A stretch of 64,000 bases of DNA from Eledone cirrhosa (taxonomy: Eukaryota). The position numbers and the translations under genes were made by a program. The notes beneath the pieces are model-generated. The model saw only the letters and a list, made by a program, of their open reading frames with translations. It ran no database searches and was not told where the DNA came from. Below, piece after piece: positions 10,633 to 63,782 of the stretch (position 1 is the stretch's first letter; every line of letters starts with the position of its first letter). The stretch is taken from contig OZ024763.1 of NCBI GenBank assembly GCA_964016885.1, forward strand, positions 27,094,001 through 27,158,000, given 5' to 3'.

Positions 10633-11817
10633 GGTTATACTTGGGGAGGGTCATATTTGCGTAATATTGCCAGAATTAATAACAGAACACACTCACTGTT
10701 TGGTTGGTTTTCGCTTCTCGCTGTCTTTTATATCTGCGATCTAACTTACTCGGTCCTCAATGTTGCCATTGATTGACCGACGGTCAAAAATAATACAATA
10801 TAGACACAAACACATATATATAGTTTACATATTTTACATAAATCTTTCGTTGCACATCTGCAGCATCGTCAGTGGTGTTATATTCTTTGTTCCTCCTGTT
10901 GTGTTGTATGTCTACGCCATTTTTTATTCAGTCTGTCTATATATTTACTTATTTATTTGCTTGTTTGTTTATCTTATTTTATTTTGTCTTCTTTGCGCAT
11001 GCGTTTGCGTGTGTGCATAGTGTTATGTGTGCTGTGTGACTAGTGTGTATAGTGTTGTGTCTACTGGGTGACTAGTGTGTGTTTATGTGCTTGTTGTTAT
11101 TGTGCTTGTGTATGTATTTATTTATCTTATTTTATTTTATTTTATTTACTTATTTATACTTCTCTTAGGTCAGTGTTGTTTGTTTGGGTGTTGTTGTTGT
11201 TCCACTCATTCTTTCTGTTTAGCTTTGGTCTTCTAATTTCTATTTCACTGGCCTTTCTAATTTGCCTATCTGCTGGGTCATTCCTATGTTTAGATATTAT
11301 TCTAATTTCTATGTTGTCTATGTTACCGTCATGTTGTCTAGCATGTTCGTATAGTACTGACCCGTTTTTTCGTCCTTTTAGTTCCCCCCAGTGTTGGTAT
11401 ATCCTTTCACCTATGCTACGAGCTGTCTCACCTATCTATGTTGTTGTCATGTTTCTGCAAGTACCCTCTGTACATCTTATGCTATAGACTACGTTTCTAG
11501 TTTTACAGTTTATCCGGCGGTTCACCTTACATATGATACATTTCCTATTGGTACAGTGAGTTTTCTTAAAAGGGTAGGTTTTGCTGATCAGGGATTTTAT
11601 GGTGGTTCCTGGCTTTTCTACCACCTTTATTTTTAAGTGGGTCTTTCTCAGGGCCTTTCTACACTGGTTAGCTAATTTCCCTCCAGGGGTGGCGTCCACA
11701 AACATGACACTCTGATATCTCTGGTTGTCGTACCATGATGTGGCCTTCCCTATCTTATGTCTAGCCCTATCTAAGCTATTCCACTCCTGTATAGTGGGCA
11801 AATTCCTTTCATGTCCA
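10633..11817 (-). mobile_element. 5'-truncated Penelope-like retroelement (family A) with a hammerhead-bearing 3' pLTR
   Basis: GIY-YIG ORF remnant; 3' region homologous to 28986-29282; hammerhead-like core on the minus strand at ~10839-10872; (TA)n on both sides. Confidence 0.85.
11154..11801 (-). pseudogene. PLE linker, Zn-knuckle and GIY-YIG endonuclease fragment with a nonsense codon
   Basis: [74 protein letters not shown]; the Tyr of YIG is TAG at 11436-11438. Confidence 0.85.
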
Positions 11818-14800
11818 TATATGTATATATATATATATATGTATATATATGTATATATATATATATGTATATATATATATATGTATATATATATATATGT
11901 ATATATATATATGTATATATATATATATGTATATATATATATATGTATATATATATGTATATATATATATGTATATATATATATATATATATATGTATAT
12001 ATATATATGTATATATATATATATATATATGTATATATATATGTATATATATATATATATATATATATATATATATATATATATATATATATATATGTAT
12101 ATATATATATGTATATATATATATGTATATATATATATATGTATATATATATATATGTATATATATATATATGTATATATATATATATATATGTATATAT
12201 ATATATATGTATATATATATATATGTATATATATATATATGTATATATATATATATGTATATATATATATATGTATATATATATATATATGTATATATAT
12301 ATATGTATATATATATGTATATATATATATATGTATATATATATATATGTATATATATATATGTATTTATATATATATGTATTTATATATATATGTATAT
12401 ATATATATATTTATATATATATGTATTTATATATATATGTATATATATATATATGTATATATATATATGTATTTATATATATATGTATATATATATATGT
12501 ATTTATATATATATGTATTTATATATATATGTATATATATATATGTATTTATATATATATGTATTTATATATATATGTATATATATATATGTATATATAT
12601 ATATATGTATATATATATATGTATATATATATATATGTATATATATGTATATATATATATATGTATATATATATATATGTATATATATATATATATGTAT
12701 ATATATATATGTATATATATATATGTATATATATATATGTATATATATATATGTATATATATATGTATATATATATATGTATATATATATATGTATATAT
12801 ATATATGTATATATATATATATGTATATATATATATGTATATATATATATATATGTATATATATATATGTATATATATGTATATATATATATGTATATAT
12901 ATATATGTATATATATATATGTATATATATATATGTATATATATATATGTATATATATATATGTATATATATATATGTATATATATATATGTATATATAT
13001 ATATATGTATATATATATATGTATATATATATGTATATATATATATATGTATATATATATGTATATATATATATGTATATATATATGTATATATATATAT
13101 GTATATATATATATGTATATATATATATATGTATATATATATATGCATATGTATATATATATGTATATATATATGTATATATATATGTATATATATATAT
13201 GCATATATATATATATGCATATATATATATATGTATATATATATGTATATATATATATATATATATATGTATATATATATGTATATATATATATATATAT
13301 ATATATGTATATATATATGTATATATATATATATGTATATATATATATGTATATATATATATATGTATATATATATATGTATATATATATATATGTATAT
13401 ATATATATATGTATATATATATATATATGTATATATATATATATGTATATATATATATGTATATATATATGTATATATATATATGTATATATATATGTAT
13501 ATATATATATGTATATATATATGTATATATATATATGTATATATATATATATATATGTATATATATATATATATATATATATATATATGTATATATATAT
13601 ATGTATATATATATATATGTATATATATATATGTATATATATATATATATATATATATATATATATATATATATATGTATATATATATATGTATATATAT
13701 ATATATATATATATGTATATATATATGTATATATATATATGTATATATATATATATATATATATGTATATATATATCTATATATATGTATATATATATAT
13801 ATGTATATATATATATATGTATATATATATATATATGTATATATATATATATGTATATATATATATATGTATATATATATATGTATATATATATATATGT
13901 ATATATATATATATGTATATATATATATATGTATATATATATATGTATATATATATATGTATATATATATATATGTATATATATATATGTATATATATAT
14001 ATATATGTATATATATATATGTATATATATATATATGTATATATATAGGTATATATATATATATGTATATATATATGTATATATATATATGTATATATAT
14101 ATATGTATATATATATATGTATATATATATATGTATATATATATATGTATATATATATGTATATATATATATATGTATATATATATATATGTATATATAT
14201 ATATATGTATATATATATATATATATATATATGTATATATATATATATGTATATATATATATATGTATATATATATATATGTATATATATATATATATAT
14301 ATATGTATATATATATATATATATATGTATATATAGATATATATATGTATATATATATGTATATATATATATATATATATGTATATATATATATATATAT
14401 ATATATGTATATATATATATATATATATATATATATGTATATATATATATATATGTATATATATATATATATATATATATAAATATATGTATATATACAT
14501 ATATATATAAATACATATGTATATATATATATATATATATATATATATATATATATATATATATATATATATATATACATATATATATATATATATACAT
14601 ATATATATATATATACATATATATACATATATATACATATATATACACATATACATATATATATATATATATATATATATATATATATATATATATATAC
14701 ATATATATACACATATACATATATATATATATATATATATATATATATATATATATATATATACATATATATACACATATATATATATATATATATATAT

Positions 14801-15690
14801 ATATGTATATATATATATATATATATATATATATATATGTATATATATATATATATATATATATATATGTATATGTATATATATATATATATATATATAT
14901 ATATATATATATATATATATATATGTATATATATATATATATATATATATATATATATATATATATATATATATATATATATATATATATATATATGTAT
15001 ATATGGGCTTCTATATAATACAGGTGTGTGTGAAACATGCTTTAACAGTACAGCCCCCATGTTGCTATTGATTGCCTGATTTACATGTAACAATCTTCCG
15101 CACTATAATCTTGTATAAATAGGACACGCGTGCATGCCACACGTGAGACTGTTGCATATGCTGGCTACTCCAAACTTTCCTCTTGCTTTATCTTCATAAA
15201 CATATATATGTATATATATATATGTATATATATATATGTATATATATATATATGTATATATATATATGTATATATATATATATATGTATATATATATATG
15301 TATATATATATATATGTATATATATAGGTATATATATATATATGTATATATATATGTATATATATATATGTATATATATATATGTATATATATATATGTA
15401 TATATATATATGTATATATATATATGTATATATATATGTATATATATATATATGTATATATATATATATGTATATATATATATATATGTATATATATATA
15501 TATATATATATATATGTATATATATATATATGTATATATATATATATGTATATATATATATATGTATATATATATATATATATATATGTATATATATATA
15601 TATATATACGTATATATAGATATATATATGTATATATATATGTATATATATATATATATATATGTATATATATATATATATATATATATA
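11818..15690. repeat. ~3.9-kb (TA)n/(TATG) microsatellite containing one insert (15005-15201)
   Basis: Direct inspection; the IYIY-type ORFs are artefacts of the repeat. Confidence 0.95.
15005..15201 (+). repeat. Partial duplicate of the element at 18026-18502
   Basis: gggcttctatataatacagg...ttatcttcataaac is near-identical to 18026-18223, and the upstream microsatellite variant pattern is shared as well. Confidence 0.9.
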
Positions 15691-15844
15691 AAAATACGTA
15701 TTTAAGAAAGCCACAACAAAGCAAAGGGAAATCTCGAGGTAGGAAGTGAAATATAGATAGGAAAAACAGGTGAAAGTGAAAGTTGAGAGAGACAAAGATG
15801 AAAACAAAACAAAGGTAGAAGGGTTACCGTAGTAGAGATTTTAA

Positions 15845-61800: not shown

Positions 61801-61859
61801 CTTTCACTCGTGTAGGACACCCCGGTTATTTTTCATATTGTAAAAAAACCTCACGTGCT

Positions 61860-63085
61860 AATATATATATATATATATATATATATATATATATATATAT
61901 ATATATGTATATGCATATATATATATATATATGTATATGCATATATATATATATATATGTATATGCATATATATATATATATATGTATATGCATATATAT
62001 ATATATATATATATATATATATATATATATATATATATATATATGTATATGCATGTATATATATATATGTATATGCATATATATATATATATATATATAT
62101 ATATATATATATATGCATATATATATATATATATGCATATATATATGCATATATATATATATATATATATATATATATGCATATATATGTATATGCATAT
62201 ATATGTATATGCATATATATATATATGCATATATATATATATGCATATATATATATATGCATATATATATATATATATATATGCATATATATATATATAT
62301 ATATATATATATATATATATATGCATATATATATATATATATATATATATATATATATATATATATATATATATATGCATATATATATATATATATATAT
62401 ATATATATATATATATATGCATATATATGTATATGCATATATATGTATATGCATATATATATGCATATATATATATATATATATATATATATATATATAT
62501 ATATATATATATATGTATATATATATATGTATATATATATATGTATATGTATATATATGTATATGTATATATATGTATATGTATATATATATATGTATAT
62601 GTATATATATGTATATGTATATATATATATATGTATATGTATATATATATATATGTATATGTATATATATATATATGTATATGTATATATATATATATGT
62701 ATATGCATATATATATATATATGAATATGCATATATATATATATATATATATATATATATATATGTATATGTATATGTATATGTATATATATGTATATGT
62801 ATATATATATATATATATATATGTATATGTATATATATGTATATGTATATATATATACATGTATATGTATATATATATATGTATATGTATATATATATAT
62901 GTATATGTATATATATATATATATGTATATGCATATATATATATATATATGAATATGCATATATATATATATATATGTATATGCATATATATATATATAT
63001 ATATATATATATATATATATATATATGAATATGCATATATATATGTATATGCATATATATATATATATTATATATATATATATAC
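61860..63085. repeat. (TA)n microsatellite with TGCA/TATG interruptions
   Basis: Direct inspection. Confidence 0.95.
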
Positions 63086-63423
63086 GTATGAAGATGTGGT
63101 AATCTCAGACACATCAGAAGATAACAGGTGCTTTAAAATAATTTCTAAAAATCGAGTAAAGATCCCTAGAGACGAAAAATTACTGCGAGGGCTGCTTATA
63201 CCATTTTCCCGTCTCTAGAGATTTATAAACCATTTTATATCAACTGACTGTAAGTTTAGTTATTTTCTGCATCTTATAAATATATTTCCTCGGCGCTTAG
63301 TATGTTCGAAGATTTCTTGCTTCACACACGGGTTTGTTTATATATATATATATATATATATATATATATATATATATATATATATATATATATATATATA
63401 TATATATATATATATATATGTAT

Positions 63424-63782
63424 GTAGGAGGTGAGTTTTATTGTAGTACAATAAAGCAATGCAGATATCGGATAAGAAGCACTCTACAGTTTGTAGGACT
63501 GGAGTATACATAATATATAAGATCAAAAGAAGGTTAAATGAGTTCCATGTATTTTATTATGCGCATTTCAAAAACAAATATCATCATGCAATAACATTTG
63601 TGTTTTCATCAGATAAAATAGGAGGACATGATATGAAGGTTAAAAACACTTGTGGATAGTGCAGTTTTAAATCAACATTTTATCTGATGAAAACACAAAT
63701 GTTATTGCATGATGATATTTGTTTTTGAAATGCGCATAATAAAATACATGGAACTCATTTAACCATCTTTTGATCTTATATA
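63424..63782. mobile_element. Hammerhead-bearing element family F, copy 2, with an inverted duplication
   Basis: 63424-63677 is homologous to 33572-33826; 63678-63782 is the reverse complement of ~63514-63618; (TA)n on both sides. Confidence 0.88.
63678..63744 (+). ncRNA. Type I hammerhead ribozyme (mirror copy at 63552-63618, minus strand)
   Basis: uuuuau CUGAUGA (long stem II aaaca-caaauguuauu..gaugauauuug-uuuuu) GAAA ugcgca UA auaaaa; canonical core, 6-bp stem I, palindromic stem III. Confidence 0.82.

Follow-up and report, generated by a model that had tools for sequence, protein, structure and literature searches.

Introduction

The type I hammerhead ribozymes of metazoan Penelope-like elements (PLEs) lie in the pseudo-long terminal repeats (pLTRs), have a short or palindromic helix III, an extra base after A9 and, as a variant, a U3:A8 core pair. 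They occur mostly as single truncated copies, besides opposite-strand pairs 100-700 bp apart, and both arrangements of such minimal hammerheads have already been described as probable truncated PLEs (Cervera and de la Pena 2014, PMC4209133). Animal non-LTR retrozymes are non-coding tandem units of low GC content with one type I hammerhead per unit, are strongly self-paired as circles and co-exist with PLEs (PMC7229834; Li, Clavereau and Pollet 2026). PLEs were named as strong candidate movers of animal retrozymes in 2020 (PMC7229834), and a 2026 preprint adds co-occurrence of retrozymes with PLEs and pLTR homology (bioRxiv 10.64898/2026.07.22.740005); this mobility is proposed so far and unproven. 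Furthermore, PLE passengers that lack autonomy, have pLTRs and insert as multiple head-to-tail copies are known among Chlamys elements, for example MRC1 (PMC8557442). Elements resembling all of these are found in a stretch of 64,000 nucleotides from Eledone cirrhosa (contig OZ024763.1, positions 27,094,001 to 27,158,000; hereafter the window, numbered from its first base), for which a sequence-only reading had proposed about nine unrelated families of short hammerhead elements clustered in and around (TA)n microsatellites.

Seven of these nine families are very probably the 3' pLTR ends of 5'-truncated PLEs, the other two being non-coding tandem hammerhead repeats (retrozymes) that these enzymes probably inserted into (TA)n. 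The motifs are real and the kinds of element are known; what is added here is their genome-wide load and a PLE footprint on two retrozyme-like families.

Hammerhead-like motifs in the window

We designated the families by position as F1 (10839/29033), F2 (15845), F3 (18416), F4 (27055/36017), F5 (27602), F6 (29562), F7 (33698/63678), F8 (35382) and F9 (61411). A strict type I descriptor (core CUGANGA or UUGANAA, helix I of at least 4 bp, helix II of at least 3 bp, GAAA, UH) was applied to the 26,665 bases of the window that remain after tandem-repeat masking. It revealed 11 motifs, compared with a mean of 0.125 and a maximum of 1 in 40 local dinucleotide shuffles, the control that had been proposed for them. 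These motifs come from five families: F4 (26943-26981 and 35904-35944 on the minus strand, 27055-27093 and 36017-36055 on the plus strand), F6 (29549-29611, minus), F7 (33696-33766 and 63550-63620, both minus; 63677-63745, plus), F8 (34947-34989, minus; 35382-35424, plus) and F9 (61411-61448, minus).

The remaining four families fit a hammerhead only as a variant or broken form. The F5 motif (27602-27687; U3:A8 core, 10-nt palindrome) was found only with relaxed stem minima; its helix II is bulged, and helix I of the window copy contains a mismatch absent from all 13 unselected copies. In F2 (15845-15880) the core carries two changes, CCGUUGA, which is the form of the family in nearly all of the commonest variants listed, covering 26 of 30 loci. 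The F3 motif (18416-18464) has the core CCGAAGA. Nearly all aligned F3 copies share this core, together with a helix II of 6-7 bp and an 8-nt palindrome that are partly lost in the window copy, where helix II is damaged. The U4C change is thus kept family-wide in F3 (L247-L275), and relatives of F3 with the usual core exist. F1 (29033, and 10872 on the minus strand) possesses both core boxes and a 6-bp helix II, with one mismatch in the 10872 copy. Both boxes are present in 8 of 9 unselected F1 copies, none of which passed the strict descriptor, because helix I, as read from the sequence, has only one base pair beside the core.

Of 422 Rfam matches in the window, the 150 listed are microsatellite hairpins and include no hammerhead family. 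Hammerhead-like sequence is present at every position named by the sequence-only reading, and the motifs are genuine. The (TA)n flanks and inverted duplicates of the host sequences that it described were likewise recovered (masked self-BLAST and inspection of flanks). Its claim of a palindromic helix III stands for F2, F4, F5, F7, F8 and F9 and fails for F6; among F3 relatives, two different 8-nt palindromes alternate in helix III through a compensating double change. The hosts are unrelated to each other only in part, as the F4 and F9 open reading frames (ORFs) are 50% identical and the endonuclease regions of F6 and F7 48%.

Seven families are very probably ends of truncated PLEs

Natural copies were sought by searching for ORFs in the DNA between widely spaced motif pairs from the match lists (loci are given as L numbers). 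In full or nearly full copies, a long ORF for reverse transcriptase (RT) and GIY-YIG endonuclease lies upstream of the motif on the same strand in F1 (L237), F2 (L240/L239), F4 (L227/L226), F6 (L228/L229, broken), F7 (L231/L232) and F9 (L235), whereas the pairs at L230 and L234 held no such ORF. F3 is linked to an ORF at L276, a partial copy. The ORFs of F2 (L240), F7 (L231) and F9 (L235) are 887, 821 and 770 aa long, respectively. Same-strand motifs 3.3-4.2 kb apart enclose the ORFs in L227, L229, L232, L237, L239 and L240, as in a pLTR or partial tandem arrangement. Pfam identified RT and GIY-YIG in F2, F4 and F9 and RT in F1, and a motif scan found GIY-YIG-like motifs in F1, F6 and F7. The F7 family aligns with the F1/F2/F4/F9 ORFs over 623 columns (probability 99.3); when the F7 alignment was compared with the PDB, no meaningful match emerged. 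The F3 ORF encodes a CxCX5C endonuclease. Two loci deserve separate mention: L237 (G000:C1:14381000-14390999) contains head-to-tail F1 elements of 4.15 kb with identical ORFs and an Asn-rich N-terminal region, and in L233 a 396-aa ORF of another element (1202-2389) is nested between F9 arms.

For each of the seven families, 29-30 loci were compared (taken for the most part from the top of the match list for contig 1, with each arm of an insertion entered on its own and 1.5 kb of flank included). The 5' ends spread from a few bases to more than 1.5 kb upstream of the motif, and the ORF was reached within the flank in 21/30 loci of F1, 14/30 of F2, 10/29 of F3, 5/30 of F4, 1/30 of F6, 6/30 of F7 and 1/30 of F9. 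Adjacent inverted arms were present in 8 (F1), 15 (F2), 14 (F3), 17 (F4), 20 (F6), 23 (F7) and 28 (F9) of the same loci; fold-back insertions are very common among the sampled loci genome-wide, and their read-through transcripts would presumably form long double-stranded hairpins. (TA)6 occurs within 350 nt downstream in 26-30 of 27-30 loci (87-100%) in the seven families, against a background of 0.27, and the distance to (TA)n has two preferred positions per family. As the seven families run into such ORFs at other loci, their window copies are 5'-truncated PLE ends. The hammerhead in the pLTR conforms in F4, F6, F7 and F9, has a variant core in F3, lacks helix I in F1 and carries two core changes in F2.

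The window copies show various degrees of this truncation. F1 copy A (10633-11816, minus strand), delimited by BLAST to a natural full copy, retains the frameshifted end of the RT/GIY-YIG ORF (11789-11157, 96% to the L237 ORF in tblastn) and a pLTR whose core starts at 10872 with helix I unformed; copy B (28951-29341, plus; self-BLAST) consists of a pLTR and tail, with the core at 29033 and a short fold-back at its 5' end. The F2 copy (15691-17475, minus) comprises the end of the ORF (17364-16489, with a Pfam GIY-YIG match), the pLTR down to 15691 and an inverted arm with tail (17313-17475), and is 98.7% identical to L240. F2 (15845-15880, L196-L225) is a young family with an intact 887-aa ORF and a core with two changes, which may have spread without an active ribozyme. 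F3 is represented by a truncated 3' untranslated region (UTR) and pLTR (18027-18499, plus) and a second, motif-free fragment (15019-15201), and F4 by two fold-back pLTR pairs (26793-27208 and 35770-36170). The F6 copy (29509-29782) is a fold-back pLTR whose plus arm begins within the motif and bears a tail. F7 is present as a pLTR with tail and ~750 nt of 3' UTR (33572-34581, minus) and as a fold-back pair (63424-63776). F9 has three pLTR arms (61339-61860); apart from its strict motif, these contain one with a 3-bp helix I (61569-61604, minus) and one with a broken palindrome (61693, plus).

Judged by their motifs, F3, F6 and F7 are best filed as Hydra-type PLEs, not as members of the Hydra clade (Craig et al. 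2021, PMC8557442). F6 and F7 share with this clade DKT, CxCX5C and the lack of CCHH; F3 has CxCX5C, with DKT unseen, and all three reside in (TA)n and bear a hammerhead. However, they have RWR/RWT instead of RWK, are about 4 kb long with 3' UTRs of 1.1-1.7 kb instead of less than 3 kb, and possess tails of 90-160 nt instead of 30-40 nt; F7 reaches over 20,000 copies. F4 and F9 resemble Neptune-type PLEs in GxKF, DKG, the CX2-5CxxC linker, CCHH and microsatellite insertion (PMC8557442), a label based on motifs, the linker being shared with Nematis (PMC8557442). F1, which has the linker and DKS, and F2, which has DKG and no match to the linker, were assigned to no PLE clade. Compared with the hammerheads of PMC4209133, the family-wide U4C (F3) and U4C+A6U (F2) cores and the long helix II extensions of F5 and F7 are different.

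The earlier view of the motifs as PLE-linked hammerheads in (TA)n is therefore borne out by ORF linkage and flanks. Of its two suggestions for the short copies, solo pLTRs applies to these seven families and non-autonomous, PLE-mobilised elements to F5 and F8. A separate class of elements, against which it had itself named extension into full PLEs elsewhere as decisive, has to be given up for seven of the nine.

F5 and F8 are retrozyme-like tandem families

F5 and F8 are non-coding tandem elements with units of ~593 and 310 nt, respectively. The window contains ~1.4 units of F5 with a short inverted piece (27369-28221, minus strand) and a mirrored F8 element (34598-35547) beside the F7 3' UTR; a perfect 225-bp tandem duplication (34532-34983) straddles the boundary between this UTR and the F8 element. 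Many of the 7,545 F5 motif copies in the genome are ~591 nt apart, and those listed among the 12,972 F8 copies are mostly spaced at 310 nt. In 13 F5 and 26 F8 loci, the sequence upstream of the motif belongs to the preceding unit, to an inverted arm or to unrelated flanking DNA, and never to an ORF. Across 404 loci, (TA)n always lay between a PLE ORF and an F8-type end. For F5 and F8, the GC content is 0.34 and 0.42, the longest Met-ORF 26 and 78 aa, and the z-score of circular folding against 60 shuffles -5.3 and -5.5. Both have two fixed 3' ends (about 160 nt apart in F5, 33 nt in F8). (TA)6 is found within 350 nt downstream in 10 of 13 F5 loci. Arms on both strands occur in 22 of 26 F8 loci, all 5'-to-5' and mostly with (TA)n on both sides, and 6 of these 22 have several units on both arms. 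The (TA)n flanks hide any target-site duplication at F5 and F8.

The F8 units of one arm differ by 0.71 nt (33/62 pairs identical) and those of opposite arms by 0.43 nt (24/35), whereas units of different loci differ by 4.23 nt (23/1,673 identical). These values, which rest on a window-like subfamily, exclude an array of 21 units and three loci lacking any complete unit; with the 21-unit array included, they are 1.78 within and 1.17 across arms. The likeness of units within and across arms suggests that each F8 array most likely came from a single template, for which circular monomers and uniform linear multimers are indistinguishable.

A ~300-nt non-coding superfamily (L169:45-344, L152, L096, L382, L194) shares the F8 termini and has different hammerheads, some with U3:A8. 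Nine relatives of F8 found by flank homology were compared: five have complete hammerheads, two broken cores and two are cut short. The five complete ones have different stems and a C3:G8 or U3:A8 core pair at the same position, a pattern that shows selection on the hammerhead fold, free of descriptor bias.

Among contigs from four sequencing runs of unknown kind, X1 contained many F7 and F8 variants, and X4-X6 each a self-closing F8 contig of 340 nt besides a few F7 contigs. Since tandem arrays yield self-closing contigs as well, X4-X6 say nothing on expression or circles.

The non-autonomous reading thus holds for F5 and F8, which match the described class of non-LTR retrozymes (PMC7229834; Li, Clavereau and Pollet 2026) in the features named above. 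With 310 nt F8 falls within the unit length of 170-400 nt given for retrozymes; F5 with ~593 nt exceeds it and is covered by the range of 51-972 bp in the 2026 preprint. However, the hammerheads of F5 and F8 are of the minimal PLE type rather than canonical, no sequence link of F5 or F8 to a PLE was found, and these sources were found to mention neither mirrored arms nor a pair of fixed 3' ends nor targeting of (TA)n for retrozymes ("inverted" and "opposite" are absent from the main text of PMC7229834). Non-autonomous Chlamys elements, in contrast, have 3' ends similar to those of their autonomous partner, and canonical hammerheads are lacking in most Chlamys (PMC8557442).

Genome-wide load

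Genome-wide pattern matches, which are lower bounds for every family, numbered 9,023 for F1, 1,423 for F2, 5,414 for F4, 1,475 for F6, 21,797 for F7 and 11,049 for F9; with F5 and F8 the sum for the eight families without F3 is 70,698. Reversed control patterns gave zero matches. For F3 there were 2,125 first-look candidates, of which 40 were scored. Patterns made from the window copies had matched few places (2 for F3, 13 for F5, 35 for F8), because these copies hold rare variants.

In addition, 79 stretches of 10 kb at chosen (not formally random) positions on 24 large contigs of the 2,996-Mb assembly were scanned with the strict descriptor. They contained 71 motifs in 33 stretches, compared with 4, 3, 4, 0 and 4 in five shuffles, i.e. 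90 motifs per Mb, in 20 sequence clusters. The size-stratified estimate for the genome is 274,000 motifs (bootstrap 183,000-372,000), small contigs being outside the sample. Many more hammerhead families exist outside the window (L296-L334, L365-L404), several with a long non-palindromic helix III.

On this basis a 64-kb stretch is expected to contain 5.7 motifs, and 11 or more occur at P about 0.09 (resampling); the clustering originally proposed is thus weakly supported. With the 18-kb satellite left out, the window is ~2.5-fold above the genome average, an excess that fits its richness in (TA)n (13.5% compared with 4.5% in the first 39 sampled stretches), and 150 kb of neighbouring DNA contained 14 motifs. 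The high density itself, which had been noted as well, is a genome-wide property, the window being near-typical and of ordinary repeat content.

Published hammerhead counts reach 120,000 in axolotl and lie above 6,000 in Acropora and at about 5,000 in Mytilus (PMC7229834); they are about 9,000 in Xenopus tropicalis, 4,000 in coelacanth and "thousands" in Schistosoma mansoni (PMC4209133). Our estimate of 270,000 motifs is above the number for the 28-Gb axolotl genome and the roughly 2,000-9,000 per genome of PMC4209133, which were obtained with a different descriptor; as descriptors differ between studies, this load is only provisionally the largest reported. A literature search with most subscription journals outside its reach found no paper on hammerheads in such a genome for octopus, cephalopod or, since 2021, mollusc, and a report of Penelope expansions in octopus leaves ribozymes unmentioned in the parts consulted (PMC8967140).

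Proposed mechanism and alternatives

Following the PLE literature, the GIY-YIG domain would nick AT-rich DNA, and RT would begin synthesis 3' of the ribozyme, at either of two internal positions, giving the optional tail (the PLE tail has been traced to two internal RT start sites; Frangieh et al., PMC11167929). RT would usually stop after a few hundred bases, so that only the pLTR with its hammerhead is inserted, and second-strand resolution would add the inverted arm. F5 and F8 would ride along in this process, target-primed reverse transcription carried out on (TA)n by PLE proteins. Each of their arrays would stem from one event on a single template, most likely a monomer that had cut itself, closed into a circle and was copied over several turns, and would be mirrored thereafter. 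The palindromic helix III would need two hammerheads per RNA, which tandem units could supply; fold-back pairs supply no dimer partner, because their arms are on opposite strands (one ribozyme and one antisense per transcript). We tentatively propose that this genome may carry the largest hammerhead load reported (one motif per ~11 kb, at least 20 families) and that the mirrored F5/F8 arrays may be direct footprints of PLE RT that ran round a retrozyme circle and then folded back. If true, this would be structural proof of PLE-driven mobility of animal retrozymes, in a genome with intact PLE ORFs.

Several points weigh against this proposal or against the PLE assignment of the seven families. 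The 21-unit F8 array (L236) contains an 11-unit higher-order repeat of variants, so that later growth or a multimeric origin applies to some arrays. A search of 404 loci (~2 Mb) revealed no autonomous element with sequence in common with F5 or F8, and F5 matched its own family only. Self-cleavage and circles of the motifs and arrays are predictions from sequence, the predicted cleavage sites being GUA in F8 and F9, GUC in F5, AUA in F6 and F7 and CUU in F4. Hammerhead cleavage was not needed for insertion in vitro in one reconstituted PLE, and the anole PLE hammerhead needs protein (PMC11167929). Only 1 of 9 Xenopus retrozyme dimers was cleaved (bioRxiv 10.64898/2026.07.22.740005), and minimal PLE hammerheads cleave poorly (PMC4209133). 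As to the seven families, the ORFs of F3, F6 and F7 gave no Pfam match, F6 and F9 reach an ORF in a single locus each, with 3' UTRs of 1.0-1.7 kb compared with a flank of 1.5 kb, and the link of F6 to its ORF also rests on L228 matching L229.

The alternatives differ in how they deal with these data. That the motifs are chance matches in AT-rich repetitive DNA would agree with the failure of F1 and F2 in the strict descriptor, but is refuted for F3-F9 and deserves practically no credence, given the 11 motifs against 0.125 in the window, the 71 against 0-4 in the genome sample and the pairing kept across unrelated stems at homologous positions. Most of the nine families could constitute a class of their own, made up of short non-autonomous elements with ribozymes and concentrated in this part of the genome, since the window copies are short and non-coding and many sampled copies of F4, F6, F7 and F9 begin 30-110 nt upstream of the motif. 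The continuous range of 5' ends leading into PLE ORFs in seven families and a motif density only about twofold above the genome sample (P about 0.09) have already largely refuted this view, which is very improbable.

Two further explanations concern F5 and F8, and both are unlikely. They might be pLTRs of autonomous PLEs yet to be found, with the arrays as pLTR multimers; the search for a partner covered ~2 Mb only, and pattern matches were listed for the first 100 places. Yet units, inverted arms or unrelated flank, and no ORF, lie upstream of the motifs at the 13 F5 and 26 F8 loci, and PLE matches upstream of an F8-type end are always separated from it by (TA)n. Alternatively, the arrays might be satellites grown in place by unequal crossing-over after insertion of a single unit, without circular RNA, as suggested by the higher-order repeat in L236 and by the local amplification proposed in the preprint of Li et al. 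2026. Such growth, to which we give a similarly low probability, accords poorly with F8 arrays that are dispersed and short, with two mirrored arms at 22 of 26 loci and several units on both arms in 6, and with opposite arms that are as alike as the units of one arm.

The two young, abundant retrozyme-like families carry PLE-specific insertion marks and occur in one genome with several PLE families that have long open ORFs (L231, L235, L240), which makes it possible to combine a template with its candidate enzyme in vitro. Which features a PLE hammerhead has to retain can be probed directly with the core variants that occur naturally here (U4C, U4C+A6U, U3:A8).

Other repeats in the window

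A long interspersed nuclear element lies between microsatellites at 20638-24517 (plus strand) and has an open frame of 1,045 aa (21295-24432) for APE endonuclease and RT. The satellite mentioned above is a tandem array of 192 copies of 96 bp (37890-56309; 97% matches) with long open frames; a 52-bp array of 25 copies (36394-37696) looks related to it. One repeat resembling a short interspersed nuclear element (SINE) occurs at 28602-28779, 32428-32953 (with an inverted pair at 32570-32953) and 58943-59121; the copy at 28602-28779 resembles octopus SINEs.

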